A program made the position numbers and the translations under genes. From Marsupella aquatica (taxonomy: Eukaryota; Plantae; Marchantiophyta), in contig OZ316892.1 in the NCBI GenBank assembly GCA_973895155.1, positions 23,574,133-23,638,132 of the forward strand: a stretch of 64,000 bases of DNA, written 5' to 3'. The notes below the pieces were generated by a model. The model was not told where the DNA came from. It saw nothing but the letters and a program-made list of their open reading frames with translations, and did not search any database. The first letter of the stretch is position 1; each line of letters begins with the position of its first letter. Shown here in pieces: positions 21,287 through 55,990 of the stretch.

Positions 21287-21803
21287 AGCTCAAATTCTGC
21301 TCACTGAGCTACGCGAAGAATTGTTTGGAGTCGAGAGCGATGAAAGATGCAGCGGAAGAGAAGTCAGGAGTGAGCGCCTATGTTCTGGATTCCTCCCCCT
21401 TCAAGGCCTGCTCCTCGTTTTGTTGCAAAGTCCCGTTGGAGTTAGCCGTAGCCTGTCACAATCGCGGGGCTCGCCAGTTCGCAAGTCGCAACTCTTAAAG
21501 TCGTAAAGTCTTAAAGTAGGGTTTACTCGTAAACCCTTAAACTCTTAAACTATTAAACACTTCAACTCTTCAACTCTTAAACTCTTAAACTATTAAAGTA
21601 GGGTTTACTCGTAAACCCGTAAACTCTTAAACACTTCAACTCTTCAACTCTTAAACTCTTAATCTTCGGCAGAGTTTAGTTTACTCGAGTTATCAGCAAA
21701 TATAGTTTAACTACTTCAAAAATTTAAAAATTTTCCGGTTTTCTTCATGACTTTGGAATTACTGCCTATCTACATAGCCCTCTCCTCAAACGGCGCCGTG
21801 CCC

Positions 21804-24692: not shown

Positions 24693-24722
24693 CCGGGTGT
24701 CTTCCTCTGCCCTCTCCTCATG

Positions 24723-27700: not shown

Positions 27701-27827
27701 TAGAGCGTAATTTATAAATTGTTGGTCGACTTGTTGCAGGCTTGTCTACTGTTCCTTCTATTTCATTTCGTTGGATGAGGGTAACTCGCTCTACTACATT
27801 TCCCGGTGTTGGGTAATCTGGGGATTG
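24723..27827 (-). CDS. Gypsy gag-protease, 5'-truncated at the junction with the LTR fragment
   Basis: Retrotrans_gag-like region, three CCHC knuckles (CTRCNNQGHYHHEC, CYNCGQPGHYSPEC, CGNCGKEGHLPVEC) and protease VDGGS...LLGRPWL. The frame stays open upstream to 27827. Confidence 0.88.
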   Translation of the reverse strand, partial: QSPDYPTPGNVVERVTLIQRNEIEGTVDKPATSRPTIYKLRSRDVQYISPKPKKKEIDIAKPLRRTQSLDEYEGTPAFQIIGTGKTTNTRHESIIEGGIQQIESLKFNSDSPLLQRTPIDESVRLAEALPSLGYGSASSSLSAISTPNSVNSISPLTSQGSVTSTSSQSLRAYPPINPIPVPIRRPQMARNNIRYDTFKGTSKEDAETFLKEFEAAATSNGQTQDAEKATIFGGLLKKNAQKWYDRFPDKNDWGKTKTGFLDKYKEDGVEARAFARISQLTMKKHGSVRKYADKLLDLVDKYNPNTAKSTTRDWFINGLPSRIARYVRREGGTTFEEAQEAAQKYVDSEVSEKKRVKKDLKKGKRKDKKKKKKKKSSSSSESGDSDTTTTEGTSSDSGSSSSSSSSPSSDDADTKTTRMQKSTVPQKAKTLDKMMDSLTSKLNKLSVNAAIFKPTRKLPPTIRNNVWCTRCNNQGHYHHECPSLQRAVNYGEEEELLDYGDTYAVQAPFAGQYFPPAAGPTSWAQQKSAGPSSFNRPIPRPPMGPPGGYPPRGAPRVQGTCYNCGQPGHYSPECPYPKREVGYTPICGNCGKEGHLPVECPNPPKPKMMVRFAKEPVKEAPRPEEVRMIYSQENREQCSHVTIEAEAEEEVHNIYTQSLSGTIPDVDLEHLVQDHVVGMPNLRVQERDRVLETYATTRSKSHHEKKHGEDGSKRKKSSKQKSKTRIPAKEGIPKEDDPAYDRYDPKYFQPDISTEVKTQIHELTKDAPLLVERKEVPPELKKPEPKMTLVPTLKPKGYDIVDVVKSQPANITIGELLEDNPTYKKQLRTLLTGRRKRRKLPSVEALRLEWEDKGPPEIEVQIMGCVIPEVPVDGGSSVNIMTEETASNIGIHKFEKTLQVLRMADQSRVVPVGKLIGIDTIIGGLTFPLDFVVLRPEVPSSYPLLLGRPWLYKAKVKVDWHQRQMSFGTPRVTISWMDEPHMGETQSDDGYTSDFSDSTLLIKAPKFESLEVGYLDIMEVEGDTPSKGTLPPVS

Positions 27828-30506
27828 GAAGTCAGGAGTGAGCGCCTATGTTCTGGATTCCTCCCCCTTCAAGGCCTGCTCCTCGTTTTGTTGCAAAGTC
27901 CCGTTGGAGTTAGCCGTAGCCTGTCACAATCGCGGGGCTCGCCAGTTCGCAAGTCGCAACTCTTAAAGTCGTAAAGTCTTAAAGTAGGGTTTACTCGTAA
28001 ACCCTTAAACTCTTAAACTATTAAACACTTCAACTCTTCAACTCTTAAACTCTTAAACTATTAAAGTAGGGTTTACTCGTAAACCCGTAAACTCTTAAAC
28101 ACTTCAACTCTTCAACCCTTAAACTCTTAATCTTCGGCAGAGTTTAGTTTACTCGAGTTATCAGCAAATATAGTTTAACTACTTCAAAAATTTAAAAATT
28201 TTCCGGTTTTCTTCATGACTTTGGAATTACTGCCTATCTACACAACCCGTCGTCGGAATCACAATATGATCGGTGCGCCGCGTTGCTAACTCCAGTGGCA
28301 ACGTCCTCGCCGAAAAAGAACCAAAAAAGTTACCGTTCAACGGACAGAATCTTTGTCGGACAGCCAAAAAACAGCTCTTTGTTTTTTTTGGGAATATTCC
28401 TGTACAGTCCGAGAGGTCTCATAGGGGGCCATTCCCCCTGTCGGAGCGATTAAAATGGAGGGCGGCAGGTCTTGGCACAAGGAGAACAAAGGGGAGGAAA
28501 AAATGGCTAAAAATAGGCCCTAAAGGGGGTCCAAATGCCCCTTAGCCAAAAATCCGCTCAAAAATGCGCATCCGCGTATGCGCGACGCGAGGCGGGCCAG
28601 GGAGTATTCGCGTATCGGGCCGCGCATTTACAAGGCGTATGGCCGTGTACACCTAAGGCAGGGTCCGCAACCGCGTCACGCGAAGCAGGAGGCGGGCGCT
28701 GCAGGGCCGGCCGAAGGGAGGGTGATGGGGGGTGCCGGGGCGCGATTAAAATGGCCGAGGCGGGCCAGGCTTGAAGTAGGAGCGGGGGCGCGGGGTCGTG
28801 ACCCTAAGGCAAGGCAGCGTCACCGACGGGAGGAAAACAAAAGAGGCCGGTGCGGGCTAGGTGCGAGAGGGATGCAGCTGCCGGCCGACTGCAAACGCGC
28901 CGGCCGGCGCTGCGCAGGGCGCCACCCCGCCACGAAAAATGGGAGTGCGAAGGGGGGGCAGGCAAATACCAGTATACAGGGCCGGGGGGTGTCGGGGAGG
29001 AGGGGGGAGTTCGGGTGTGTGTATACACACCCGAATACACACACAAGTCCCCCCATTAGACCCCCTTAAGTGGAAAAATTAACCCTAAAATGACAAATAT
29101 CGATTACTCACCTCTTAGCCGCTGTTTCTCACAAGAAAAGTGAACAATGTTGACGGGAAATGTTGCCGAATTGCACCGGCACAGTCTGTAGCTCCAGCAG
29201 AGTAAAAACTTTCCGCCGCGTCATCTTCACTCCGCGTCAAGTACCAATCCCGGGCTCAAAACGACCGCCTTGCCGTGATCAAACCGTTGAGCCGTGGCAC
29301 TCCGCGTTTCTTCCACCGAGTCAGACGTCACAAAGAGAAACCCGGTTCAGATGGGAACAAGCTCCATAGCTTGTGAAAAAACCTGAATGTCTCTTTCACT
29401 CGTCACGACGCACTCAGTAACAACTCGGTAGCAACTCAGCTACCGAAACAACCAGCTCGCATCAACCTTCAACAGGAGCTACAATGTGCGATCCCTCCCG
29501 CACCGCATAGCTCACACCGTTGAAAAATGCAAACTCTGGTCACTCCCCCGAAAAGCCGTCGAACACGAATAAAACCTGAACGACGCAAATTTCAAATCCT
29601 CCGCACCACGGATACCGATCAGCGAGTTCTAACCACCGTTAGAAAGCCCTCTCACTAACCTATCCGCTCAGCCACACATATTCGAGTTTCATGCGACAAA
29701 ACTCCAAATATCCCATCGACAATGAACGCTGGAAAAACCTATCACGAAAAAACCTCGTCACCTCCCAGGCATGCTTTGATACCACTTGTTGAGCATAGAC
29801 GACATTCGTAACAGCAAGCCCATGAACCATCCAACGCACAAGAGTCGACACAGAGAGATACGTGGTTCACCTCCACATGAGGCTATGTCCATGGGAACAC
29901 ACAAGAGCTTTACTGCACTCTAAACCGACCGGCCATACCAAGCATCCACAGCACAAGCTCTCCCTATCTCTCAACTAGCTCCATAACAATGAGCCTAAGT
30001 TCCACCAGGGTCTGGCATCAGCCCTAGCTATATACACAATAGCACTATCGCTAACATTAGCTAAGTCCTAACCCAAGTTAGCCTAACTATAGTTAGCTCA
30101 TGAGTCACAAGACTAGGGCAATATCTAACACAAGACAACCTCACAACCTCCACTTTCTAGCATAATTGTGGTCACAAGGGAGTGCCCCACCCCTAACCTG
30201 CAATCAAGCGGCGGTCATCAAGGCCAGCAAGCAGCAGCATCTAGCAGAAATTTGATGTCACACCATAAAACCTGCCTCACATCAAGCATTGCAAACCAGG
30301 GCTGCAGGTTTATTTATGTTGGCAAGGAGTAACGGGGGCCTCTCCATGGCTATCAACTCAGTGTTTTTAGCGGTACGAGGCAACCAAACTGCTGGAGACT
30401 CTCTAAAGCACTCGGTTTGAAGGGAGTTATTGCACAGAAGCAGACCTATCTGCAAAGGTTATGACTCTTATAGCAAAATCTTACAAAAGTCTTCAAAATA
30501 GAACCT

Positions 30507-30882
30507 TGTCACCCCATGTTGCATTTGAGTTGCAACTTTGTTGGTTGCACATGTGTTGTGAGTTTGGGAGGGTGACCTGGCATAGCAGGTCACCTGGTAG
30601 GGGTGACCTCTTCACCCAGGTTACCATGCCTTTGTGCCATGGGGGTATACCTTGGAGAATGAGGGATTAGCTCCTCATTCTTCCAAGTTGAGCCTCCCGG
30701 CACTAGTAGAGCTCATGTGAGTGTGGCTATGGTGAGAGAGAGAGAGTGTATGCCGGTTGGCATGTAGAGCGATATTGGCAGGGTTCTGCTATGTGTATAG
30801 ACTTGGAGTCCTGCATGGCTAGCGGGTGAGTTTGGCTTGACTTAGTGATACCTTGCAGCGGGGTCCCGTTTCGCAAGAGATT
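30507..30882 (+). repeat. Terminal repeat A1 (376 bp)
   Basis: Matches 45910-46285 with ~9 substitutions by eye, mostly transitions. Confidence 0.93.
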
Positions 30883-30955
30883 ACTTGGAAGAATGAAGGA
30901 GGAGAGCGGATGCTCTCAGTTTTTCTAAATTGTGCGGACCAACGGAGGTGCTCGG

Positions 30956-31849
30956 CCCTGGGCCCTCAGCTTACAAAATAATGAAACATACGTGCAAACA
31001 TTTGATGGGTATTAAATATCAAATCCGCAAATAATATTATAACACTATTCTAAGCAACAAGGTCCTTGTTTATATTTGCAACCAATTAGAAGAGGTGAAG
31101 GGCTTTCTAAAATGTGTCCCAAAGTTAATGAATTGAAGGGCCATAGTAATACCTAATGACACGCGTCACTTGTTCATTGGACCACGTGTCATCACACCAG
31201 TGGATTAGGGAGTTCTAATTTCAAGAAGGACAGTAGTGAAGCCCAATGGGTTTGTGTTGAGTGTGATGATTCCAGTATTTGTAATATTTGTTCTCAGTTT
31301 TAAGAAGTGGATGCTCCCATCCTATATGTATGGAGCAACATTAAGAATCTGTGGCCCAGTAAGATGTCTGGCACTTTATAGACAAGAGTAGTGGATGACT
31401 TCTTTGGCTTGTTAAGTGCAATGTCACCTCTAATGTCTTGTAGTGAGATTTTGTTGGAATCTTGTGGAGAACTTTGATATGTAGTCCCGTATGTAGTTTG
31501 AGTTAGATGTTTGTGTGCTAAAGCCCCAATGGCTTGCACACACATTGCCAAATATTATATGGCAATATGTTTGTTTAGTGTACTTGCCATTTAATGGTAC
31601 ATTAAATAAAATGTGCATTCATGATTGAATCTCTTCGCAAAAGATTTTTTCTATAACAAATGAAGGATGTTTTAAATCCCCAACTCTATCTGATTATAAT
31701 AACATATGTAAATTTTATATAGGACTGAAAATTCTTTTTAGAACAAACAAGATACATTTTAATGTTCTTCCAAAATATAACAAGGGGTACCTAGGGGGCC
31801 TTCGGTCACAGGTATGTCTCATTACATTTCCCTTAGTGAGGGCCCAAGG
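30956..31849. mobile_element. Non-autonomous DNA transposon (MITE-like) in the leader of the DNMT element
   Basis: TIRs ccctgggccctca / tgagggcccaagg (12 of 13 match). 8-bp TSD GTGCTCGG (30948-30955 / 31850-31857). AT-rich non-coding interior. Confidence 0.8.
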
Positions 31850-32249
31850 GTGCTCGGTGGAGCTCGGTGATTCATCCGTTCGTTCGTTGTTTGTTGGTGC
31901 CAATCGTTGGTGGGCGTTTGCTGATCGCTGGTTGATGCTGCTGGTTGGCAACACGTATCTGGGCGCGGAAGTGCTGTTGAAAATCATCATTGGTGGTAGT
32001 TGCTGCCAAGTGATTGTTGTCCCGTAGGAGTGCCACAGTTTGTTGCATAGCCAAACTGGAGACAGGAGTGACTCGTAGTGGTGCCCAATTTCGACCTTTG
32101 GAGGCAGAAGAGGGCACTGTGTCACCTGGGTGCGGCATTGGCACCGACCTTGCCGTGGAGGAGGCGACGCAATTACTGTCCCGATTGTCACTGTATTCAC
32201 GCATTAGTCCCTACAATTGGGACATGGAGCATTCCACGGATAGTCGGAT

Positions 32250-34500
32250 TCGGAGGTTTTTGGGAGATGTTGGCACCATGGAGTTGCCACATTTCATTAT
32301 GGAGTTTGAGCGGGTGTGATCAACAGAAGTTGCACAGCACGGCATTCTCCCCTTTCATGGCATGGCGGGCATTGTTCCAGCACTTGGAGGGGCCACCCAT
32401 GACTGACTATGAGGAGTTCCAGACGATGTATGCTGAGCACATTGAGTCTTGGAGACGCAAGTGGTCTCCAGATTACATCTCACTCACAAGTGAAGACGTG
32501 TCCCCGAAGGAGGAAGAGGGTGCTAGCAGCTCTAGCACATCGTTGCCAATCCCCAGGTTCAACCCGATGGTGGAGTTCTTCAAGGTGTTGAAGAAGAATT
32601 ACTAGGGTGTCCGCGTGGACAAGTTGTTGAGCCTCCAGACATTCAACAGGATAGAGGGTGAGAGTTTGCGCAAGGCGTACACGCGCATGAGACGGTTGAT
32701 CAGTACCACGGAGGGCATTACTGATGCTCAAGCTATCCAGATTTGGTACCAGGCCCTGGATAAGGATTTGAGGAACCGGGTTCGGTTTTTGGCGTTGGCC
32801 ACTGATGAGAAACTGACACTGGAGAAAGTTTTCCTGCTTTCTGATACCATTGATATGAATCGGTCAGAGGAGAAGGTTGTCACCCTTGGATTTGGCAAGG
32901 AGTCCCCTGGAGGCAGTGTTGCTAGTCCATCTGGTGGGCAGCAGCCACATCGATTGGGGAATGTGCTAGGGAGGGCACAGCCCAATGCTCCCGGTGGTGC
33001 TGTTGTTGGTGGCAGGAGAGCAGTAGCACCCCAACGTCCCTTTCAGCCCTCTTATGCCACTCAGGTGGAGTGCTGGCGCTGTAAGGGACCTCATAACCAG
33101 CTTGATTGCCCTGATCGAAAGGGTCCACCACGTGCAAAGCCGGGCGGAGCTGCCACTAGACAGCCTGATCTTAGGCGTTGTGACCATTGTCACCAAGATG
33201 GGCATACTATTGACAGGTGTTTTCAGCTGCATCCAGAGACGTTTTGGTGCTGCCCACAGGGGAGTTCCTCCTAGAGGTCGTGGAGGCCGCCGCCCTGGTC
33301 GTGGAGGTGACAGGGTAGTCCCCGCAGCTGATGCACAGACCACCGATCCTGCAGCAGCCACCAGGATCCAAGAGTTGGAGAAACAATTGGCAGCAACCAA
33401 TTTGGTGTTGCGGGCCCTTAGCAACGGTGAGGCCTCTAGTTCCCGCACCATGGATAGTTCACAGATTGCTCCTGGATTCAGTGACTTGGATTACATGTGC
33501 GGTGTTGCACAATTAGACAGTGGTGCAGCTGTCACTAGAGTAGTGGCTAGGGTTGCTGAGCCACGAGGTGCTGCCGTGGAGCTGGATCCACACTGAGGGG
33601 AGGCCAGCCGGCAACAGAGATTACCACAGAGTTTTACATTGATAGATACTGCACGGACTTCTACTATGGCACCCATTGTTGACAGTAGTGGACCTTCTGT
33701 CCACTCTCGTGGTCACATGGGGCCACCCAATATTGCTTATGACATGGTCACTAGCCTAGTGTTGGGGGCGGCTAGAGCCCTGTGTCAGGTTCCATTGTTT
33801 TCTTGTGCTCACTTATCTTCTCTTGGAGTTCCTGTTGCGGATGTGTTGCGCCAGGCAGCTGCATTGTATGATACTGGAGCAGTTTTGGCATCTAGCTATG
33901 ACACAGCTGGTCCACCGGTTGGCCCAGATGCCACAGGGTCCAGCCATTCTTTGTTGAGAGATGCTAAGACTTCTTGGCAGGCTTCTGTTGCTCGATTGAG
34001 TGAGCTCCCTGCCAGACCAGCCATTGATCGGAGTGTTGTGACTCCCGGCGTGGTTGTGGTGGACAACCGTGCTGGTGTTTTTACATTGGTTGGCCCTAGT
34101 GGCACAGTGTATGTGCCACCCCGTGTATTGTTGGATTCAGGTGCACAACCTCTCATGCTGGGGAAAGCAGCTGTCCAAGGCCTGGGCTTGAAGAAGGTTG
34201 AGGTGGAGCCTTGCCCATTTCAGATTCATACATCTCTTGGTGTCCAAGAGAAGGCACAGCACATGATGCGAGACAACCTTACTGTGAGGTTAAATCCCCA
34301 CCGCACTGGAGATGACTCTGCCTTGAAGGTGAAAGCCATTGTCACACCTATAGAGTCTTATGATGTTTTGGTAGGGGGAGCTGTACTCTACCCCATGGGC
34401 TTTGTGTTGGATTACTGGCAGGAGACTGTTCACTATCGACCAGGATGGCAGTCTGGTGATGGTAGCAAGTGTGAGTTACCCGTCCACTACTTTTTGCGTC
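32250..34500 (+). pseudogene. gag (two CCHC-like knuckles) and aspartic protease of the DNMT element, disrupted
   Basis: CWRCKGPHNQLDC, CDHCHQDGHTIDRC and protease VLLDSGAQ...YDVLVGG. Several in-frame stops and frameshifts. The start is approximate. Confidence 0.75.
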
Positions 34501-34837
34501 GGACTGAGCCATCACCAGAGCAGATATTAGTTTGTCAGCTTGTGCTGGAGCTATCACCTGGCCAGGTGATCTCTTGGAGGGTAATGCCCATGCTGCAGAC
34601 ATCCCCGTAGCAGAGCAGTTGCACAACTCCTCAGGTAACCACAACATTCCCATTGTCCCACAGGTATGGGGTTTCACTTCTGAGTTACAGCAGCATGCTG
34701 ATTCATATATACAGGCAGCATGGCGTGAACCATTTGCCCCTTTCACGGAGCCACCTATGGTGGATGGCATTCCCAGGTTGATCACAGTGTCCCCATTGGA
34801 CACCACACCCATTTTGTGGACATACCCTACTGAGGGT

Positions 34838-35790
34838 ATTCGCTTGTTGGAATTGTTTGGTGGCATGAGCACTGGTTTAGCTGCTATCTTACATGCTGGC
34901 ATTAGAGTGCAGCAGTATCTCTATGTGGAGCGCGATGACACAGCCCGACGTGTCTCATTGCGTCATGTGCTCAGTTACATCAGCAGTTCCCTGATTTGTT
35001 GCCTCTATCAGCTATCAGAGGTTATCAGCACACTTTGCCAACAGACATCTCACTTTTGGGGGCGCCAGATTTAGTATGCATTGGTGTGATTCACCTTGTC
35101 ATTGCTGGGTGGCCATGCCAGGGCCATTCCTCTACTGGGACAGGATCTGGTCTCAAAGACCATCGTTCTCACATGTTTTGGGAGATGCTGCATGTCATGA
35201 GGTTTTTGCAGGAGCAGCAGCATGTCTCTCTTGCCTATGTTCTGGAGAATGTTCCTTTGTTGGGTGATACTCGGTCACAGATGGTGGCTAGTATGCACCA
35301 AGTGCGGTCCTGGTTAGGACCTGCTATTTTTTTAGATGCTGCTAGTGTCGGATCGACAACACATCATCCACGATTATGGTGGACCAACTTGATGCCGCCT
35401 GAGGTTTTGCGGAGGGCATATCAGCACATTGTGCGGCCTGTTGGGCTCACTGTGGACCGCATTTTGGATGCTGGACGGCATGCACAATTGGTGCATCACA
35501 ATGATCGCTCCCCATCGGCAGTGGTGAACCGGGTTGGTCAGCCCCGTGCAGCACTACCCACTTTGGTGAGTTTCCCCTCATTGTATGCTTACCGTAATGG
35601 TGGACCGGGGTTAATTTGGGATTCTCACCACAAAGAGCTGACGGAACCTACTGCTGATGAGCGTGAGCGTGCTATGGGATTTCAGACTCGCCCCACAGCA
35701 GTACCCTCAGTGACTGGAGCAGCACGCCGTCACATTCTGGGTCAGGCTATGGATCTTAATTGTTTGACTTGGATTATGAGCTTAGCCTTG
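34838..35790 (+). pseudogene. DNMT3-like C5 cytosine DNA methyltransferase domain embedded in pol (one frameshift near 34970)
   Basis: Motif I IRLLELFGGMSTG, motif II YLYVE, motif IV IAGWPCQG (catalytic Cys codon 35116-35118), motif VI LENV (ENV at 35245-35253), motif VIII HPRLWWTNL, and C-terminal ERERAMGF...RRHILGQAM. These are colinear with DNMT3 IRVLSLFDG / GGSPC / ENV / RARYFWGNL / EMERVFGF / RQRLLGRSW. Confidence 0.88.
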
Positions 35791-36132
35791 GCAGAGCAGC
35801 GCCGGTTACAATCATCTGTGACACCTCCACATGGATGCTCTTCCTCTCTTGAGTCCTTAGCGTTCAGAGCAGGGGGCGATAGTGCCACAGATCGTCATCC
35901 CTGGACTTCATGGGGAGTTAGTGGAGAGGTCAGTGGGCTTTCTTTTTTGCAGCAGCATGGTATTGCTGCTCGTGAGGTTGCAGCATAGCAACCACAGTTG
36001 GCGCTCTCTGCACCTTCTGCCAAGGTTACCATTGACAGTTGGGAGCCAACTATTGGCCCCAAGATTACTGGAGGTGAGAGACAATGTGTACGATAGTTTC
36101 TACGGAGTTATGGAAGTTGTTTTGCTTTCAGC

Positions 36133-38489
36133 ATGCAGGATTTGGGCATGTTAAAGGGACCAGGCATCCGGATAGATTTGGCAGTTGATGCGCCCATCTT
36201 TCGGAGACCATATCGATATTCAGATATGGAGAGGGCACTGATTCAGGCAAGGTGCCAGGATTTGTTGGCAGCACGACTTGTGGAGAAGTCATTTGGTGAG
36301 TATGCTTCTGCTACTGTGATGCGAGCAAAGAAGGATATGCATGGCAATTGGACTGACAGGAGGATGTGTGGAGACTATCATCCAATTAATCAGCAGACTA
36401 AGTCTGATAGGTATGCCATGCCCACACCGGAGGAAATATTTGATGCCATTGGGCATGCGAGAGTGTTTAGCATATTGGATCTCAGGGCTGGATATCACCA
36501 ACTACCTATCAGGATTGGTGACAGGCAGAAGACAGCATTCTGGGGGATTGATGCTCATGGGAAGGATGTGTTGTATCAGTGGCTATTCTTACCGTTTGGA
36601 TTGAAGAATGCGTCAGCTAAATTTTGGAGGGTCATGGATCGGATTTTGGCAGACCTGGATTTTGCCAAATGTTATATAGATGACATTATTGTCTACAGTG
36701 ACACTGTGGAGGAGCATGCTATATATTTGCAGCAGTTGTTTGAGCGGCTGAGAGAACATGGATTGAAGCTGCATCCTGGCAAATGTAAGTTCTTCCATGA
36801 CCAGATTGCATATTTAGGGCATACCATTTATCCAGGTGGATTGGGTGTGCAGCAGAGAAAGGTGGAGGCAATTGCTGGCATCCCTCAGCCTACAGATGTG
36901 AGTAGAGTCCGAGCATTTTTGGGGCTTGCAAACTTCTACCGAAGATATGTGAAAGGATTCAGTGCAATTGCAAAATCTTTGACGTTACTTACGAGACTGG
37001 ACCATGAGTGGCAGTGGGGTGATGATCAAGATAGAGCTTTCCATCAGTTGAAGGAGAAGCTCACATCAGCGCCCATCTTGAGGAGACCTATCAGGGGGCA
37101 TCCATTTAGATTGCATACTGATTGGAGCATGCTGGGACTTGGGGCAGTGCTCACTCAGCAGGATGATGAGGGAAGGGAGTTTGTGGTAGCATATGCCAGT
37201 CGATCGAATAACACTACAGAATCAAAGTATGGCTCCTATGAGGGAGAATGCTTGGCTGCAGTGTGGGCAGTGGCTCATTTTCGATGTTACTTGTTGGGTA
37301 ACCCCTTCACTCTTGTTACGGATCATCAACCACTCAAATGGTTGATGGAGTCAGACAGCTTACTGGTAAGCTTGCTCGTTGGGCACTCATACTTCAGTAG
37401 TATGATTTTGAGGTCTTGCATATCCCTGCCCGAGCCAGAGGGATTTGACAGGAGCACGTTGGCATGATTAGGCAGACGAGGAGATGGTGCCAGGTTGGCA
37501 TGCTTCTGCTTATTTGTGCTTGTTGCAGAGTGTGGATGGTCTTGGGGCGGTGATATCATTGGAGAGGCCCAATGCAGACTTTGTGGATCCAGAGATTTCT
37601 AGTGAGGAGTCTGTTGGACATGATATTCATGATGATGCAGATGTTGTGATGTATCTGCGCACGGGCAGCATGCCAGGCATGGTAACTGCCAAGGAGAGAG
37701 ATCGCATCCTACAATGAGCTAAGAGGTTTAGATGGGAAGGATCTCACTTGTTGAGAGTGTGGGATGATGGCAGGGCGCGATTGGTACCAGTCCTCCTTTA
37801 TCCCAGCGTGCACGATTGGTGCGACATGCTCATGAAGAGCTTGGACATTTTGGAGTGAAGCGGACCTACAGCTTACTCCAGACCCAGTATTGGTGGTGTG
37901 GGATGCATGCTGAGGTGCAGCAGTTTGTGACGTGATGCACTGTGTGTGACAGAGTGAGAGCATCATTTAATGCTCCTACCCCGCAACTGCATCCCTTGCC
38001 GATTATGGGCTTGGGATATCATTGGAGTTTAGATTTTGCTGGACCCTTACCACTGACTAGACGTCACAATCGTTATGCCTTAGTGATGGTGGAGCACTTT
38101 TCTTATGCCTTTCTGGACCGTGTATTGAGCCATTTTGGTGCTCCTGCTGAGGTTTTGACTGACCAGGGGAATGAGTTTCGTGGAGATTTTCAAGCCCTAT
38201 GTGATCAAGCATTTATTGATCACCGTACGACATCTAGGGATCATCCACAGGCAGATGGATTGGCAGAGAGAGTTGTCCAGACAGTAAAGAGAGGATTGCG
38301 GAAGTATGGCTTGCATAAGGGTCACGTGAATGATTGGGATATCCAGCTACCATGGTTAGCGATGGGAGTAGGTAAGCATCTCTTGCATCCTTTTCACCAT
38401 ATTTGTTGCTCTATGGTAGGGACCCAATGTTGCCAGCAGCCATTCAAAGGGAGGTTGTTGAGGTGTTGCAGTTGGATGACCCTGACATG
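36133..38489 (+). pseudogene. RT, RNase H and integrase (zinc finger and DDE core) of the DNMT element, disrupted and cut by Copia-B
   Basis: LDLRAGYHQ, LPFGLKNA, YIDD (36673-36684), TDWS, YEGE, TDHQPL, HEELGH, SLDFAGP, TDQG and ADGLAER. Confidence 0.9.
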
Positions 38490-41400
38490 TGTTAAGGATT
38501 GCTCTTAGTCTTGTGACTCAAAGGTTACGGCACTTAGGCTAACCACAGTTAGGGTCTTAGCTGAGGTTAGGTTAGTCGTGTGTGACCTTGTATATACCAG
38601 GGCTAGTGTAAGCCGCTGGTGAGTGGTGCTTACTGATTGTAACGGAGCAACTTGAGGAAGAGGGAGAGCATGTGTGTTTGTTTACTCTTGAAGTAAAGCT
38701 TGAGTGTTCGTGTGGACGTAGCCTTGGAGAAGAGATGAACCACGTAGGATTGTGTCGACTACGTGTGCTTGGAATAAGTCATGGTTGTATGGTCGTTGCA
38801 AATGACGTCTTAGTTCAACAATTGGTATCAGAGCAAGCCTGGGAGGTGACGTTGAGGTGATCAAAATTTTTGTGACATGTTGGTGACGGTTTTTCTAGCG
38901 GTTAGAGTTGGTGGATTTCATGGAGTTCTATCGCATGGAACTTGGAGGTGTTGGGCTCAACGGATAGATCGGGGCAAGGGTTTTCCGACGATGCAAAGAA
39001 ATCTCTGAACGGAGTTTGTGGTGCGGAGGAATTCATGTTTCCGTCGTTCTGGATTTTTTGTGATTCGTGTTCGATGGTTTTCTTCGATGGTTCTTTTGGG
39101 GGGGAGCTGAGATCATTTTCTCGACGGTGTGAGCTTTGTGGTGCGCGAGGTATTACAACCTTTAGCTCAATTCGTAGATCAGGCAAAGCTGATCATTTCG
39201 GTAGCTGGTTTGCTATCGAGGGTGTAGTGAGTGCGATGTACCAAGCAAAAGAGCCGTTCTGAGTTTCTGACTAGCTATGGAGTCTTCTTTTGACTGAAGC
39301 GGGGTTACTTGTCGTTGCGTTCGACTCAGAGGAAGAAACGGGAAGTGCAACGGCTCAACGGAGAGATCGCGGTGTAGTGGTCATTTTGAGTCCAAGATTG
39401 ACACTTGACGCGGAGTGAAGGAGTCATGACGGGAATTTTTTACTCTGCTAGAGTTGCAAATGGTGCCGGTGCAATTCGGTAACATTTCCCATCGACAACT
39501 AGTCTTTATCTGGTGTAAAGTGATAACGGCAGTGTGAGTAACCCAACAAATTTATTTTTTGTGCATATTTTGCCTTAGAATAGGGCCTTTTTTTGTGGTG
39601 TGTATACACACCCTCCCGACCCTTGCACCCCTGTCAATACCTCGTCAGCGACCCCCTCCTCCTCCTCGCTAATACTCCCATCGCGGACGACCCGAACATT
39701 GCGGCCGGCGTGGACGTCGCAGCCGGCATGAACGTCCCAGACGTCCCGACCGTCGCGGCCGTCCCGGATGTCCCAAAAGTCCCGGCTGTCGTAGCTCCAT
39801 CCATGCCCATTCCGACTCGGTTTTTTACTCCCCGGCCCCTGGTGCACTGCCTGCGCCTTTTTTTTAAGACAGTATTTTTATGTTAAGGGGCTTAAATCCC
39901 CTTAGGCCCGGTTTTTTAATCCTTTCCAGGCTCCTCATTGGTTAAGCGGCATCCCGGGCCGGATGACCCACTAAATTAACCGTTTGGACAGGGGGAACGC
40001 CCCCCTGTGAGACCTGTTGCACAGTCCAAGGAATATTCCAAAAAAATAGAGAGATGTTTTTCGGGCTTTAGTCGAAGATTCCAAGGTCCGAACGGTAACT
40101 TTTTTTGGATCTTTTTTGGCGAGAACGTAGCCACTAAAGCTAGCAACGTGGTGCACCACTTGATTTGAATTTCCGACGACGGGTGGTACTTGGAATTTTT
40201 CTTATTCCCCAAGGTGGTCAAAACGGGGAAGAATTTTTGAGTTTTACCCACCCCGACCGAAACGTGAAAAAGTTTTTCGTCGAAACTCGATTTCAATTTT
40301 GAATTTCAGTGTTGGCTTGCTAGGTTGGTGGGCTAAGTGGCGGTGACAAGTTTCAAGTTTTTTGGAAAATTGCAAAAAACGGCATTTTTTCGTGATTTGG
40401 ATTTGAGTCAACGAGAAGGAAGGAAGGAAAAAGCATATAGGGAGCAGCACAGCAATAGCACGTGGAGAACGTTGGGAGGACAACGATGGCATCCAAGTTT
40501 GGAGGTGTCAAGTTTAAAATGGAAAAATATGATGGGCGCACAGATTATTTGCTATGGGAGAAGCAGGTTAAGGGAATTCTTCGTGCTATGGGCCTAGATC
40601 ATCTGCTATCGACTCGGGAGGAGTCTAGCAGTGAGGAGGAGATCTCGTTGAGGAAATGGAGGCAAGAGCAAGTGATTGTTGTGAATGCGGTTATGGTGTA
40701 TCTGAAGCCACATATCATTAAGAAGCTGGACGACTACGAGGATTGCGTATCCTTATTCAAGGCCCTTAGAGAGAAGTACTACCGAGAGGATACCTCAGAT
40801 TGGTTGTACAAGAAGTCTCTCTTGATGAGCTTGAGGCTAAAAAAAGGAGGCAAGCTTCGAGATCACTTGGATGAATTCGACAGCCTAGTTGTAGATTTGT
40901 CAAATCTTGGCAAGGGAGTGGAAGATGAAGATAAGGCATTGCTTCTTCTCAGTTCCTTACCCCCATCGTATCAAGGTTTGAAGCAGGTTCTCTTGTATAG
41001 AGATCTCAAAATCATTTCATATAATGAGGTGGTAAGCTCTTTGTTGTCAGATGATGCACAGAAGAAACTGGGTCATGCCCAGACACCATCTTCATCTGGC
41101 AGTGCATTGAATGTGAACCGCGGGAGGACTCAACAGCGGATGACTGGTGAAAACAGGTCCTTTTCACAAACATACCCCTCACGGAATAGAGGCAAGGAGA
41201 AATCTCTAGAAAAGAAACCAATTACATGTTGGAAATGTAACAAGCCTGGCCACATGAAACGAGACTGTCGAGTCAAGCAGACTCATCAACCATCAGCGAA
41301 CGCAGCCACTGATGTTGATTTTATTGACTTGCTTGATGATGAAATCTTGTGAAGTCCAGATGTTGCCCTTTGCATTTCATCTAGTAACAACGGTGATCGG

Positions 41401-44400
41401 TGATAAATGGATTTTAGATTGTGCCTGTACCTATCACATTTGTTGTATGAAAGAGTTTTTTACTTCTTACTCAGTATCAACCGGTTCCATGTTGATGGGG
41501 AATGATCATCCTTGTCAAATTATTAGAATTGGATCCGTGAAAATTTGGATGTTTGATGGAGCTGTGCGAACAGTGAGTAATGTCAGACACATATCTGACA
41601 TGAAAAAGAATTTGATTTCTCTTGGAATGCTGGAAGCAAATGGATGTCGGTGGAGTTCTGCTGATGGTATTCTTCAAGTGTCAACCAGAGGCAAGGTTGT
41701 CATGAAGGGTAAGCGGCATAGGAATCTATATTTGTTGGAGGGCAACGTGATTTGTGAAGAAGTCAATGTAACTAGATCTCAAGGCGAGATGACTCAGTTA
41801 TGGCACTACAGATTAGGACACATGAGTGAAAAGGGTTTGGCGGTACTTCGCAGGAAAGGACTTCTTTCTAATTTGGAATCTACTAAGCTAGATTTTTGTG
41901 AACACTGTATGCTTGGGAAGCAGCACAGGAGAACCTTTGGTGTTGGAACTCACAATACCAAAGCTATACTTGAGTATGTATATAGTGATGTGTGGGGTCC
42001 AGCCCCAACTCTCTCACTTTTTGGAAAATTGTACTATGTCACGTTCATTGATGATTACTCACAGTATGTGTGGATCACATTTCTACATGCCAAGTCTGAA
42101 GTTTTTGGCACTTTTAAGAAGTGGAAAGCCCAAATTGAGAATCAGACTGGATCCAAGGTGAGATATCTGTGATCAGATAACAGCGGGGAGTACAGTTCAA
42201 GTGAGTTTGAACTATATTGTGCAGAGCAAGGGATTACTCGTCATCTCACGACAGTTTATACTCCTCAACAGAATGGTGTTTGTGAGCGGCTAAACCGAAC
42301 ACTATTGGAGCGATCGAGGAGTATGTTGAGCCAATCAGGTTTACCGCATGAATTTTGGGCTGAAGCTATAAATACGATAGCTTATTTGGTAAATCTTTCT
42401 CCTTCAAGTGCAATCAGTTTCAAGACGCCGTTTGAAATGAGGTATGGACGGCACGCAGACTATCAGGTTTTGAGAGTCTTTGGAAGTGATGCATATGCTC
42501 TCACACCTAAGCAAAATCGATCTAAACTAGATTCTACTTCCAAGAAGTGTCTTTTTCTTGGTTATCAACCAGGTGTGAAAGGTTACAGGCTATGGGATCC
42601 AGAAGCTTGTACGTTGCTTGTCAATAGAGATGTATCCTTTAATGAATCCAGATCATCAAAGGAGGGGGAGAATGCTCAGGCTTCCCATACTGACAAAGGT
42701 AAATCTCCTATCCTGGACCATGTTGTGGGGGAGATTGGTCATGAGAGTTTTCATGACATAAATGAAGGAGGTGCTCCGAGAATGGAGCTGGTTCCGGTAT
42801 TGGAACAAGAGGAGCAAGTTGTTGGAATACCTCAAATTCAACCAACAGAACAAGATCAACCAGAATCATCAGCTAGAAAATCAAGACATACTACTCGAGC
42901 TCCTACAAGGTATGGACAATCGACAGATTCATCAAGGTTAGATGATGTTGACATTGCACCTGAAGATGATGACAGAGCACTGATCTTGGAAGAAGGAGAA
43001 CCTTCTTCTTATCATGAGGCGTGCATTTCAGACGAGAAAGATGAATGGAATGCAGCGATGCAGAGGAAGTTGCAATCTTTAAGTGACAACAGAACATGGG
43101 AGCTGATGCAACTGCCAAGTGATCAACAAGTGGTGGATAGCAAGTGGATTTACAAGCTGAAGGACAACTCTTCAGATGGAGGAGACAAGATATACAAGGC
43201 AAGGCTTGTTGCCAAGGGATTCACTCAAGAGAAGGGAGTGGATTACAATAAGGTCTTCTCTCCAGTTGCCAAGTATTCCACGATATAAATTTTGTGTCAA
43301 CTTATTGTGTTTTTTGATCTGGTGTTAGATCAAATGGATGTTGTTACTGCTTTTCTCTATGGCACCTTGGAAGAACAAATTTTCATGAGGCAACCACTGG
43401 GCTTTGTGAAAAAGGGCCAAGAGAGTTTAGTTTGTAGGTTGCTTAAGTCCTTGTATGGATTGAAGCAAGCTCCTCGATAGTGGAACAAGCGGTTTGATGA
43501 TTTCATGCTTGCACAAGGATTCACTAGGATGGTGTATGACCCTTGTGTGTATACGAAATCAGTCAAGAATTGTGTGTTTGGTTTGCTCATTCTGGTGCTC
43601 TATGTGGATGACATGTTGATTGCGGCTAAGGATCAAACTGAGGTTGACAAACTCAAATTCCGAATGAAGGATCTTGGGAAAGCCAAGAGGATCTTAGGTA
43701 TGGAGATTACGAGGAACTTTGAACTGGACAATTGTGGCTGAATCAAGGCAAGTATGCTGAAAAGGTACTTGCAAGATTTAACATGAAAAATTGTAAGCCA
43801 GTAAGTATTCCTTTGGCTCCATATTTCAAGTTATCATCGGCTTTCTGCCCCACGGATCCAGTGGAGAGAGGCTTGATGACTAAGGTTCCTTATGAGAAGG
43901 CAGTGGGCAGTCTAATGTATTTGATGACATGTACCAGGCCTGATCTAGCCCTAGCAATGGGCAAAGTGAGTAGATTCATGTCAAATCCAGGGAAGGTATA
44001 TTGGGAGGCTGTGAAATGGATTCTCAGGTATCTTAAGGGCACAATAGACTATGGTCTGTTGTTTGATAGTAAATCAAACAAAACCAAATCTTTGGTTTGC
44101 TATGTAGATTCTGACTACGGAGGCTGTCTGGAAACAAGGAGGTCAACGACTGGGTATGTGTTTACTCTTGGAGGAGGATGCATAAGTTGGAGATCTACCT
44201 TGCAGAAGTGTGTATCTCAATCTACTACAGAAGCAAAATATGTTGTAGCAGCAGAAGCAGCAAAGGAAGCAATTTGGTTGGATAAGCTGGTCACTAAGAT
44301 GGGATTGGAGCATGGAAAAATGGCTCTTCATTGTGACAGCCAGAGTGCGCTTCACCTAGCTATTAACCAGGTGATGGATAGCAAGGTGAAGCACATTGAC

Positions 44401-45101
44401 ATCAGGTACCATTTTATTAGGCAAGCAATGTCTGATAAAATGTTTGGGCTAGTCAAGATTGATGGAAAACTCAACCCGGCTGATGCTTTTACCAAAGTGA
44501 TTCCTTTGGAGAGTTACTCAAGACACCGTGCTACTTTGCAGGTTTTGCATTTGCAGCACAAGTAGAGTAACTTAACAAGATGTGATTTCTGTATATGAGT
44601 TACTCAATCCTGTTATGGCTACGGCTTAATTCTAGTTAACTCTTAGTTAACCTTAAATGGTTTTTAGGAGGACACCTATGGTTTTAGGTGATTGTCTAGA
44701 ATTTCCCGCTGAGTATCTCATATGGATAGCAGAAATTGCAGTCCCCAAGACTAGAGTCAAGGGGGAGTTTGTTAAGGATTGTTCTTAGTCTTGTGACTCA
44801 AAGGTTACGGCACTCAGGCTAACCACAGTTAGGGTCTTAGCTGAGGTTAGGTTAGTCGTGTGTGACCTTGTATATACCAGGGCTAGTGTAAGCCGCTGGT
44901 GAGTGGTGCTTATTGATTGTAACGGAGCAACTTGAGGAAGAGGGAGAGCATGTGTGTTCGTTTACTCTTGAAGTAAAGCTTGAGTGTTAGTGTGGACGTA
45001 GCCTTGGAGAAGAGGTGAACCACGTAGAGATTGTGTCGACTACGTGTGCTTGGAATAAGTCATGGTTGTATGGTCGTTGCGAATGACGTCTTAGTTCAAC
45101 A
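38490..45101 (+). mobile_element. Ty1/Copia LTR retrotransposon (Copia-B, 6.6 kb) inserted in the DNMT element's integrase
   Basis: LTRs 38490-38820 and 44770-45101 (~8 differences). TSD ACATG (38485-38489 / 45102-45106). PBS tggtatcagagc at 38823-38834. PPT agggggagtt at 44760-44769. Confidence 0.95.
40486..44565 (+). pseudogene. Copia-B gag-pol, disrupted
   Basis: MASKFGGVKFKMEKYDG, CWKCNKPGHMKRDC, WILDCAC, YSDVWGP, KARLVAKG, YVDDML and KHIDIRYH. Stops and frameshifts present. Clearly the same family as Copia-A. Confidence 0.92.
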
Positions 45102-45106
45102 ACATG

Positions 45107-45625
45107 TGGATGCGAGCTTGTTCTCAACGGGCAGACTTGTTTCGGAGAGTGATGCCCATGGCATTTGAGAACTTAGCTATTGCACAGCATCGGGATACTT
45201 TGAGGTATGCCACTATTCGGGGAGGAGGATATCGCCCTAGCATCAGGCGATTTTATTCTGGAGACTATGTGTATCTGCAACAGACAGCACCTACTACTTT
45301 GGATGTCACTGCCGGACGTACTATTCTACGAGTACATAAGGTTTTGCCATCAGGCATTCTGGTTTTAGAAGGTCGTGATGGTATGGTTTGGAAGGATCAT
45401 GTGCGCAACTGTGCACCTTGTCACCTTCCAAACATTGATGATAGCATAGATCCTAGTCTAGTAGTGATACCTGCAGGCTTACGATGTATGTTGTGTGGAT
45501 CCGCTCGTGGAGCTGCAACCATGTTGATTTGTGATGGTTGCTCAAGAGGTTGGCACTTAGCGTGTTTGACGCCACCTCTTGATTCAGTCCCTAAAGGACG
45601 GTGGTTGTGTCCCAATTGTAGATAG
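45107..45625 (+). CDS. Integrase C-terminus of the DNMT element, ending in a PHD finger
   Basis: Resumes right after the Copia-B TSD. RRFYSGDYVY, then a C4HC3 PHD: CMLC...LICDGCSRGWHLACLTPPLDSVPKGRWLCPNC (45485-45619), then a stop. Confidence 0.88.
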   Translation, partial: WMRACSQRADLFRRVMPMAFENLAIAQHRDTLRYATIRGGGYRPSIRRFYSGDYVYLQQTAPTTLDVTAGRTILRVHKVLPSGILVLEGRDGMVWKDHVRNCAPCHLPNIDDSIDPSLVVIPAGLRCMLCGSARGAATMLICDGCSRGWHLACLTPPLDSVPKGRWLCPNCR

Positions 45626-45800
45626 AGAGTGGTTTTAGTTAGCACAAAACTCATTAGGCAGTATAGATTGCAGGCAGGCGATTAACGATGGGGCTCCTTT
45701 GCATCCGGCCTCTTGATCTGTGCACCCAAAAGGTGTATACTTCCTTCTAGTTTTTGGGCTAGTTATAGTTAGCGGGACCTAACCACCAGCTAGGGGGACG

Positions 45801-46392
45801 GTTATGGATTTTGGCGTACATGTGTTGTGTGTCGTGTGATTATTTGTTTTCTTGTTTACATGGTGTGCCGCGATGTGAGTTGTGTATGGATGTGTGTCCG
45901 CACGACAGCTGTCACCCCATGTTGCATTTGAGTTGCAACTTTGTTGGTTGCACATGTGTTGTGAGTTTGGGAGGGTAACCTGGCATAGCAGATCACCTGG
46001 TAAGGGTGACCTCTTCACCCAGGTTACCATGCCTTTGTGCCATGGGGGTATACCTTGGAGAATGAGGGATTAGCTCCTCATTCTTCCAAGTTGAGCCTCC
46101 CGACACTAGTAGAGCTCATGTGAGTGTGGCTATCGTGAGAGAGAGAGAGTGTATGCCGGTTGGCATGTAGAGCGACATTGGCAGGGTTCTGCTATGTGTA
46201 TAGACTTGGAGTCCCGCATGGCTAGCGGGTGAGTTTGGCTCGACTTAGTGATACCTTGCAGCGGGGTCCCGTTTCACAAGAGATTGTTATGGATTTTGGC
46301 GTACATGTGTTGTGTGTCGTGTGATTATTTGTTTTCTTGTTTACATGGTGTGCCGCGATGTGAGTTGTGTATGGATGTGTGTCTGCACGACA
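45801..46392 (+). repeat. 3' repeat block B1-gc-A2-B2
   Basis: B1 45801-45907 and B2 46286-46392 (107 bp, one mismatch) flank A2 45910-46285. The B1/A2 junction is the palindrome GACAGCTGTC. Confidence 0.92.
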
Positions 46393-47039
46393 ACCTATCT
46401 GAAACCTTGCTTCTCCAGCCATGACTGGTGAGTGATTCTTTCCATGAATCTTTTTTGGTAACTGCATCATGTATTAAATTTTTTCAAGAGAACTCAAGCA
46501 CCTAAAATACTAAAGTATTGATATTGGTTTTTCTTGTACTTTTAGGGGCATTTATGGAGAAGAATGCACAATCAAGATTTGGATCAGTTCATTATGAAAA
46601 TTCTCCTCTATTTTTACTAAAATTATTAACAAGAAAACTATCTTTATGAAAATTCTCCTCTACTTTTATTAAAATTATTAACAAGAAAAATATTTTTGCT
46701 GTCAAGTATATCAAGGTCATGTTGTTGCAGTAAGGTTATGGACAATAATAACCCCTCAAAAGTCAAGATGAAGCTCTAAGTTTGGGGGAGCATTATGGCC
46801 CACAATGCCCTATAAACAGAACTGTGCTATATACTTTATGCTTCTCGTGACTGTTCATTTAGGAGGAAGAACTTTGGGCAAGATTTCTATCAAGGTAAAA
46901 AAGATTCTCTCCTGTTACCCAATTTTTTTAAATTAAAATCTCTCATCTTTCAGAACACTATGGCCCAAAATGCCCTAAATAGGATACTAATATATTTAAA
47001 AGGCTTGGCCTGTGAAGAAGGTTAACGAGGAATCAACTG

Positions 47040-55219: not shown

Positions 55220-55990
55220 ATGTCTACCCGGGAGGTGAGGACGATAAATCTGACGTTGATATCGGCGTCCGATCTGAAGAAGGTGACCCATTTCGGGAAG
55301 CAGTCGACATACGCAGTGGTGTACATCTACACGAACAAGAAGCAGGCGACGAAGGTGGACACCAAAGGCGGGCTAAACCCGACCTGGAACTCGACAGTAG
55401 TCGTCGAGGCGGATGAGGAGCAAATGCAGCAGGGGCGGTTGTACATCACCGTTGAGATTTACAGCCATGGAACATTCGGCAGCAAGATTGTAGGCACGGC
55501 CAAGATCCCGCTCTCAGAGATCCCCAAGGACGAATCGAGTTCCAGAGGGCCTCGATATATGGCTTTCGAGGTGGTCCGCCCATCGGGCAAGACTCACGGC
55601 GTCGTCAATGTCTCCATCGCCCTCGGCGAGAAGCGGACCATTCAAGTGTACCAAACTCCTCAACAAGGGTACCCAGCAGCGACCGCTTATGGGTATCCCC
55701 AAGGGTATGCTCCTCAGCAAGGGTATCCGCCTCAGGGGTACTATCCTCAACAGCAACCTGGCTACTATCCTCAACAGGGGTATCCCCAGCAGGGATACTA
55801 TCAGGACAATCAGCAAGGCAGAAGAGGAGGGGGTCTGGGTGGTGGTGGTCTAGGGGGCGCTGGATTGGGTCTAGGTGCCGGGCTCCTTGGCGGTCTGTTG
55901 GTTGGAGATGTGATTGGGAATATGGGTGATGGTGGTGGCTGTGGTGGTGGTGGTGGTTGTGGTGGCGGTGGTGGTTGTGGTGGCGGTTAA
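55220..55990 (+). CDS. SRC2-like C2-domain protein with a Pro/Gln/Tyr-rich tail and Gly/Cys-rich C-terminus (256 aa, intronless)
   Basis: C2 domain LTLISASDLKKV...YAVV...TKVDTKGGLNPTWN...VEIY...VGTAKIPL...VVRPSGKTHGVVNVS, QQGYP repeats, a GLGAGLLGGLLVGD hydrophobic segment and a GGCGGG tail, as in plant SRC2 family proteins. Confidence 0.88.
   Translation: MSTREVRTINLTLISASDLKKVTHFGKQSTYAVVYIYTNKKQATKVDTKGGLNPTWNSTVVVEADEEQMQQGRLYITVEIYSHGTFGSKIVGTAKIPLSEIPKDESSSRGPRYMAFEVVRPSGKTHGVVNVSIALGEKRTIQVYQTPQQGYPAATAYGYPQGYAPQQGYPPQGYYPQQQPGYYPQQGYPQQGYYQDNQQGRRGGGLGGGGLGGAGLGLGAGLLGGLLVGDVIGNMGDGGGCGGGGGCGGGGGCGGG

Follow-up and report, generated by a model that had tools for sequence, protein, structure and literature searches.

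Why transposons keep the silencing enzyme of their host has been an open question since 2018, partly because the known cases lack good genetics. A locus in the liverwort Marsupella aquatica raises it again. The window, a 64,000-nucleotide stretch of contig OZ316892.1, holds a retrotransposon in which an earlier note had read a DNMT3-like cytosine methyltransferase (DNMT) built into pol between protease and reverse transcriptase (RT). What is this domain, on which translation product would it be carried, and what might it act on?

The element and its methyltransferase domain

The domain lies within a Ty3/gypsy element that occupies 30507-46392 of the window (9.27 kb without a nested copia element), has TG...CA ends and is flanked on both sides by the 4-bp target site duplication (TSD) ACCT (Table 1); the earlier note had placed the domain inside the element's TSDs. 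The Gag-PR-RT-RH-IN order, a DDE integrase, the TG...CA ends and a TSD in the 4-6 bp range agree with Ty3/gypsy; of the other usual features of that group, two complete LTRs and a primer-binding site, the element has neither. The Gag model of a relative returned retroelement capsids as its top Foldseek rows at non-significant values (E about 1), with no match at E 0.001 or better, and zinc knuckles were seen in the Gag region of a relative. The solved PHD fingers nearest to that of the element are those of CHD4, KDM5B, MLL3, ATXR5 and PHF21A. The PHD fingers of CHD4, KDM5B, ATXR5 and PHF21A bind unmethylated H3K4 tails.

Table 1. Features of the DNMT-bearing element and of the insertion within it (window coordinates).
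Feature	Position	Strand	Evidence or remark
Left 4-bp TSD ACCT	30503..30506	+	Identical to 46393-46396
Repeat A1, TG start	30507..30882	+	97.6% identity with A2
Decayed gag with capsid-like helices and a pair of CCHC knuckles; approximate start	32224..33600	+	tblastn with Marchantia ORF1 P0122
Aspartic protease (LLDSGA)	34023..34499	+	PF13975 E 0.003, under curated cutoff; 62% identity to P0122 protease
Predicted DNMT3-like C5 cytosine methyltransferase domain	34838..35790	+	PF00145 30 bits (cutoff 22), E 4.6e-7
Conserved TAG in frame, then CAA CCA (CAR-YYA); predicted signal for readthrough	35986..35994	+	TAG at 35986-35988
Reverse transcriptase core (YIDD)	36373..36828	+	PF00078 E 5e-28
RNase H	37015..37359	+	PF17919 E 5e-32; PF17917
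Integrase zinc finger and core, 5' part, decayed	37792..38489	+	PF00665 E 1.5e-6; tblastn with P0173
Nested Ty1/copia element, ordinary LTRs, 5-bp TSD ACATG	38490..45101	+	Splits integrase; foreign to the DNMT element
Integrase C-terminal part, resuming past copia insertion	45107..45440	+	
PHD finger, integrase C-terminus	45485..45622	+	PF00628 E 5.8e-12
G run, polypurine-tract-like, abutting B1	45792..45798	+	Same position in 9/9 elements with B1 start listed
Repeat B1, CA end	45801..45907	+	99.1% identity with B2
B/A junction palindrome GACA-GC-TGTC	45904..45913	.	Resembles two attachment ends head to head
Repeat A2	45910..46285	+	97.6% identity with A1
Repeat B2, CA end = right element end	46286..46392	+	99.1% identity with B1
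Right 4-bp TSD ACCT	46393..46396	+	Identical to 30503-30506

C5-methyltransferase motifs I, IV, VI, VIII, IX and X follow one another in linear order: motif I LELFGG at 34847-34864, with an acidic motif II near 34925, motif IV PC at 35113-35118, motif VI ENV at 35245-35253, motif VIII H-P-R at 35365-35373 and motifs IX-X ERERAMGF...ILGQAMD at about 35656-35755. A six-frame reading and a Pfam scan recovered these motifs where they had first been read, with no intron-sized gap, and PF00145, the profile proposed as a check, scores above its cutoff. A profile of 38 family members matched DNMT3A at E 6e-24 and DNMT3B at 1e-20, followed by DRM (7e-11), M.HhaI (2.5e-7) and DNMT2 (2e-4). The structure model of the intact DNMT domain of locus L036 has a pLDDT of 94; the Foldseek rows listed for it are DNMT3A/B/C only, and the fold comparison gave Z 27.5 for DNMT3A, 27.4 for DNMT3B, 24.0 for M.MpeI, 20 for DNMT2 and 16.4 for MET1 or ZMET2. 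The fold and the target-recognition region align with DNMT3A/B over their full length. DRM identity was rejected, since the C-terminal part of DRM2 (501-624) aligns only to model residues 1-130 and the circular permutation is absent. By profile and modelled fold the domain is almost certainly DNMT3-like, nearer to DNMT3 than to DRM, DNMT1/CMT, DNMT2, DNMT5 or bacterial enzymes, and the unpermuted, DRM-unlike character first ascribed to it holds. It shares its catalytic fold and motif order with host DNMT3 (animal DNMT3A/B; moss DNMT3), but is only 21-27% identical in structure alignments, lacks PWWP/ADD, and is intronless and element-borne.

Domain layouts were compared across 313 proteins. 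In type A, which includes all named streptophytes, the DNMT follows the protease; in type B, whose named members are chlorophytes, its place is after RNase H and before integrase, and 41 proteins show the complete RT-RH-DNMT-IN-PHD series. A partial Haematococcus model (P0170) reads PR-DNMT-IN-PHD. The type-B element L139 (122-9916) has RT-RH-DNMT-IN-PHD in one 3265-codon frame and shares the palindromic junction; its contig is filed in a Cyanobium bin and is likely an algal contaminant. Conservation was counted over 72 hand-picked DNMT rows, 42 of type A and 30 of type B. The catalytic Cys is kept in 70 of the 72 (41/42 type A, 29/30 type B) and the motif VI Glu in all 72. The first Arg of motif VIII is kept in 38/42 type A and 30/30 type B rows and is His in the window copy (codon CAT at 35365), as had been noticed.

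For the DNMT, dN/dS is 0.12 between L036 and L037 (95% range 0.06-0.21), 0.08 between L036 and L138 (dS 1.7, near saturation), 0.09 between L056 and L055 (0.17 with a different alignment) and 0.10 between L056 and L053; RT and protease gave 0.04 and 0.11 for L036/L138. The window copy against three loci gave 0.20-0.23. Decayed Sphagnum-type copies gave 0.55-0.94 among themselves, which is expected after insertion and does not support selection. The ratios of about 0.1-0.2 indicate that the family DNMT is under purifying selection, the outcome of a check that the earlier note had set, and the 120 + 51 family proteins and 80 metagenome loci show a part of the element rather than a single out-of-frame capture.

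Those 120 + 51 proteins came from the family searches; a wider set holds 649 clusters at 50% identity (E 1e-30 or better), some of which may be other DNMT3-like proteins. Named members (30 proteins looked up) belong to Marchantia, Calypogeia, Riccia, Sphagnum, Closterium, Klebsormidium, Scenedesmus and Haematococcus, with no vascular plant among them. In Marchantia polymorpha at least five Gag-protease-DNMT genes are full-length and keep every catalytic motif, and they are filed as hypothetical proteins; Mp4g09160 and Mp5g06330 are examples of intact genes. Trees were built under LG+G4, unrooted and with no host outgroup, and so cannot give direction. The tree of 72 DNMT domains separates types A and B (SH-aLRT 99) and places the window with Marchantia, Calypogeia and Sphagnum-type loci (SH-aLRT 96). 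RT and DNMT trees of 43 elements have 17 of 40 splits in common, including A/B and ten within A; by this comparison the DNMT tree appears largely to follow the RT tree. The spread across the green lineage suggests an old lineage rather than a capture in Klebsormidium only. The ESM Atlas gave generic C5-methylase clusters only. A viral contig scan with P0122 found no relative, and the 57 loci from one with the family alignment were no more than partial, phage-type matches (E 4e-14 or weaker); annotated phages are 23-27% identical in the 15 matches listed, so no close phage donor was seen.

KnitGypsy-Dnmt3 of Klebsormidium nitens is an intronless, unpermuted Dnmt3-type domain in a Gypsy element with DIRS-like repeats, under purifying selection (de Mendoza et al. 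2018, PMC5890265). It has the Gypsy domain set, the Dnmt3-type domain, the split repeats and purifying selection on the DNMT in common with the window family. According to the main text of that paper, the K. nitens lineage acquired it, DNMT and RT share one ORF, and the K. nitens element DNMTs belong to a divergent Dnmt3 clade; a PHD finger, a stop, the length of the TSD and a palindromic junction are not mentioned there, and the figures or supplement may show a PHD or the ORF layout. The K. nitens protein GAQ93235.1 (P0303) matches the family profile at E 3.6e-93 in the order Gag-knuckle-protease-DNMT, and we infer that it is one of those KnitGypsy-Dnmt3 copies. Unlike KnitGypsy-Dnmt3, the window family spans liverworts, Sphagnum, Closterium and chlorophytes, and the window clade has a conserved readthrough-type stop; one open frame joining the DNMT to RT and RNase H is found in sister subfamilies and not in the window clade.

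The earlier note knew such elements only from outside land plants. Full-text literature searches, with subscription journals and Repbase mostly outside their reach, indeed returned no paper on this family in land plants, but the kinship is closer than it had implied, given the Klebsormidium Gag-PR-DNMT protein and the shared repeat layout. For five Marchantia genes of the family and for KnitGypsy, de Mendoza et al. 2018 was the sole paper to come up, and the lineage name Lusen was not found in the literature searched. In the text available from each, PMC12344493 repeats the streptophyte and dinoflagellate cases with no Marchantia row, PMC6317226 speaks of neither PHD nor methyltransferase nor Marchantia, and PMC7466625, PMC6453930, PMC9246332, PMC9985172 and bioRxiv 2021.11.30.470311 do not describe this family. 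The kind is known; within the literature covered, a KnitGypsy-Dnmt3-like lineage in land plants that has a conserved readthrough-type stop, with the DNMT on the Gag side of it, appears to be new.

Split repeats and integration

The repeats of the window element are laid out as A-coding-B-A-B, and an ordinary LTR pair is absent. No TGG-type primer-binding site lies 3' of A1, where the next bases are ACTTGG. The B/A junction palindrome is kept in both streptophyte subfamilies and in one type-B element. Ten elements, the window included, have both ends, with exact 4-bp TSDs in seven, one mismatch in two and none in one; a 4-bp TSD shows the action of an integrase. The metagenome loci surveyed were the best 80 of 321, several of them one insertion from different assemblies. 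Among these best 80, right ends after the PHD were B-A or B-A-B in 11, variant in 2 and a single B in 9; DIRS-like split repeats, complete or partial, thus occur in the window and 11 loci. Such split repeats likely escape LTR finders.

The single-B right ends (A-coding-B) are those of L008, L018, L023, L024, L025, L029, L031, L046 and L055. L018 and L031 combine a single B with exact 4-bp TSDs and so have no terminal repeats at all; since single-B ends can be explained by B-by-B recombination or assembly collapse, we did not count them as a second integration route. L138 (1-9285) was assembled as an A-coding-B circle with one junction, which may be repeat collapse or a real circular form. A two-LTR circle cut at a random junction was rejected, as it predicts A-B-A-coding-B and none of 24 left ends (~21 distinct) had a B in front. 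The internal CA-NN-TG palindrome at the B/A junction would likely template both ends. Both ends are reportedly derived from an internal junction in a model proposed for split-repeat DIRS-like elements.

In the main text of PMC5890265, SymbioDIRS-Dnmt3 of Symbiodinium likewise has a Dnmt3-type domain in a retroelement polyprotein and A-coding-B-A-B repeats, and this DIRS-borne enzyme methylates CG de novo in yeast; it uses a tyrosine recombinase, whereas a DDE integrase, a protease and 4-bp TSDs characterise the window element. DIRS/Ngaro identity was rejected on the presence of rve, Integrase_H2C2 and protease and of a TSD, in place of a tyrosine recombinase. Troyka LTR retrotransposons (PMC12440569) have a Gypsy-like domain order; identity with them was rejected, since their CG...CG ends, 3-bp TSDs and restriction to aquatic animals do not fit the window element.

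The window copy is decayed: its aligned pieces contain some six frameshifts and another seven in-frame stops. The frameshift near 34970 that had been reported was found; a second lies near 34500-34529, between protease and DNMT. Contigs from four of six listed public runs, whose type is unrecorded or guessed, cover 33900-36400 (99 to 939 from each run), and many of them vary in length at both breaks of the DNMT region, so that these breaks are not fixed in the family. A1 and A2 differ by transitions at 8 of 9 differences, although the coding region has ~13 breaks. The window copy may already have been defective when inserted. The earlier note was incomplete in that it missed the second frameshift, the TAG at 35986-35988, the split repeats and the copia insertion in the integrase.

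The window also holds a second young gypsy element (21360-28248, minus strand), with terminal repeats 99.3% identical over 421 nt and one frame in which a single stop separates Gag-protease (1040 codons) from RT-RNaseH-integrase (972 codons); this stop reads TGA CAT GAG (TGA at 24723-24725), not CAR-YYA. Beside it, between 8-nt repeat arrays, lies a 799-codon open frame with no Pfam match (18890-21289, minus). Host genes are a C2-domain SRC2-like gene (55220-55990, plus; 72% identical in Calypogeia fissa, 46-47% in Riccia, 44% in Marchantia, 43% in Sphagnum), a lipocalin-like gene with a long insert (2951-4387, minus) and an armadillo-repeat exon (408-797, plus), which we take to resemble flagellar protein PF16/SPAG6. 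Judged by the C2-domain gene alone, a leafy liverwort would be the likely host.

A conserved stop between DNMT and RT

The stop that follows the DNMT in the window copy recurs in the family. Among 40 Sphagnum-type loci covering the site it is present in 39 (37 of 38 distinct), with 26 TAG, 13 TAA and 1 TAC. Stops at 26 Gln codons of the same loci average 11% (maximum 29%), and the DNMT-RT stop is the sole codon above 30% stops among 725. L036 has 1369 open codons, TAG CAG TTA and then 1047 open codons; L138, whose contig is filed in a cyanobacterial bin and is likely a plant contaminant, has 1162 open codons, TAG CAA TCA and then 1047. Five Marchantia proteins (1278-1281 aa) and a Sphagnum jensenii protein terminate at this stop, and base changes in the public-run contigs include none at the stop among 40 of 621 rows listed. 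With one conserved in-frame stop between DNMT and RT, the DNMT ends the Gag-protease-DNMT protein. The earlier note was thus right on the domain order, with the DNMT between protease and RT, but the assignment to Pol did not stand: the domain closes the Gag-protease ORF ahead of the stop.

The bases after the stop are conserved as well. CAR-YYA follows it in five of six stop-bearing subfamilies, namely the window and L032 (both TAG CAA CCA), L036/L037, L138 and L042/L068 (TAA CAA TCA); the Sphagnum-type loci, the largest subfamily, have CAA CCC in 37 of 40, one base off the consensus. Across these sequences, 0.36% of TAG triplets are followed by CAR YYA. Translated, the two codons 3' of the stop give Gln-Pro, Gln-Leu or Gln-Ser, so that the encoded residue varies within a constant base pattern. 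The UAG CAR YYA motif is used by SIRE1 and a few other LTR elements. It is the tobacco mosaic virus (TMV, type I) readthrough signal, for which PMC2754532 gives, in the text available, rates of 6-10% in transgenic Arabidopsis plants and of 32% when assayed transiently. The likeness to TMV lies in the stop and its six-base context; here the predicted signal would split Gag-protease-DNMT from RT-integrase. As in type I signals, CAR YYA stands in frame between two constrained coding regions, the 70 codons 3' of the stop having dN/dS 0.14-0.16. In both L036 and L138, ORF2 has no Met until codon 117, which already lies within RT. RNA folding 3' of the stop gave mixed results, with z from -0.9 to -2.7 across 4 sequences, and at the junction stability was not unusual (z -0.8 to -1.1 in 3), so we claim no stimulatory structure.

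Taking sequence conservation together with the TMV analogy, RT-RNaseH-integrase-PHD is very likely made by readthrough of the stop. The stop is absent from L055, L056, L059, L062 and L063 and from P0233, P0320, P0424, P0433 and Closterium P0287; with several subfamilies lacking it, a high DNMT dosage is not required family-wide. P0303 (Klebsormidium), P0290 and P0436 end ~12 residues past the DNMT, and their subfamily may also stop between DNMT and RT.

What the methyltransferase may act on

A Gag-protease-DNMT frame, a leaky stop with Pol made by readthrough, and a DNMT packaged in bulk that methylates the element's own cDNA before integration would together account for these features, and we consider this joint explanation rather probable. 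The main product would be Gag-protease-DNMT and the minor, readthrough product the full polyprotein, at a rate of roughly 5-10% by analogy with TMV in plants; only in the minor product would the DNMT be joined to RT. The protease would release the DNMT, and fusion to Gag would bring many DNMT copies into the particle, where double-stranded cDNA is formed. That this cDNA is the main DNMT substrate we hold at even chances. The sequence context (CG, CHG or CHH) of the predicted DNMT is not predictable. The PHD finger would bind the histone H3 tail, with a predicted preference for unmethylated H3K4, and likely steer integration, as chromodomains do. New copies would likely benefit by arriving methylated, and so either resemble host chromatin or be self-damped. 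The CpG observed/expected ratio of the element is 0.40, against 0.35-0.49 in three neighbouring transposable elements without a DNMT, and does not support self-methylation of the element.

Gag-protease-DNMT might instead work in trans within the nucleus, where it would methylate chromatin of the host or of target sites, or the family's own genomic copies, and thereby limit its own spread. The DNMT lies in the abundant product, ahead of the stop, and would be supplied well beyond the need of a single cDNA per particle; this fits such a role, as do the PHD finger, which shows that the family reads chromatin, and the fact that self-limitation is among the options discussed in PMC5890265. We nonetheless regard action in trans as unlikely: the fusion to Gag points to the particle, the type B DNMT is placed after RNase H and ahead of integrase within one ORF, as suits a role on cDNA, and the Klebsormidium methylome is plant-like despite such elements (PMC5890265, main text).

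The domain might also be kept for nucleic-acid binding or RNA methylation in particle assembly rather than for DNA methylation. The isolated KnitGypsy-Dnmt3 domain did not methylate DNA in yeast, a result that the authors call inconclusive in the main text of PMC5890265; motif IV is EC rather than PC in 12/42 type A and 12/30 type B rows, and the element shows no extra CpG loss. Against these points stand the near invariance of the Cys, the Glu and both Arg residues and a full-length alignment to DNMT3A/B that is better than that to DNMT2 (Z 27 against 20), and we think a function other than DNA methylation quite improbable.

The stop could be real and Pol nevertheless be made from a spliced or separate transcript, as is described for copia and Ogre elements. 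The first ~15 codons past the stop are variable, the Sphagnum-type context is off consensus with a Met three codons on, and Marchantia and Sphagnum gene models span the region (P0125, P0129, P0151), all of which would be compatible with splicing. We give this route little credence, since only one stop intervenes and the frame continues past it without a non-coding gap, CAR-YYA recurs in five divergent subfamilies against its rarity after TAGs at large, and that Met is absent from the window, L036, L037 and L138; moreover, five elements share no splice acceptor 3' of the stop, and in L138 the 143 nt directly past it lack any CAG or TAG acceptor. That the stop arose by decay, through a CAG to TAG mutation, and that the DNMT was taken from the host and rides along neutrally might be argued from the dominance of C-to-T and G-to-A changes among copies, most of which are decayed, but is already contradicted by the stop frequency (0.975, against 0.11 at Gln codons), by two otherwise open elements (L036, L138) in which it is the sole stop and by the DNMT dN/dS of about 0.1, with the A/B split and ten splits within type A shared by DNMT and RT trees also against it, and is hardly credible.

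Returning to the packaged, cDNA-directed enzyme, a broader and more tentative picture is of a lineage that might have had its own DNMT3 since before the chlorophyte/streptophyte split and taken it onto land, with the bryophyte-containing clade tuning its dose by the readthrough stop; its particles would be loaded with DNMT, its cDNA pre-methylated, its landing sites chosen through the PHD finger and H3, and its integration achieved from a palindromic junction without a tRNA primer. The conserved stop is a clue that domain annotation hides, as it puts the DNMT on the abundant, capsid side of a translation switch. Element-borne genes inflate DNMT counts in bryophyte annotations. The intact genes of Marchantia polymorpha make the question of why a transposon keeps such an enzyme testable in a model land plant.
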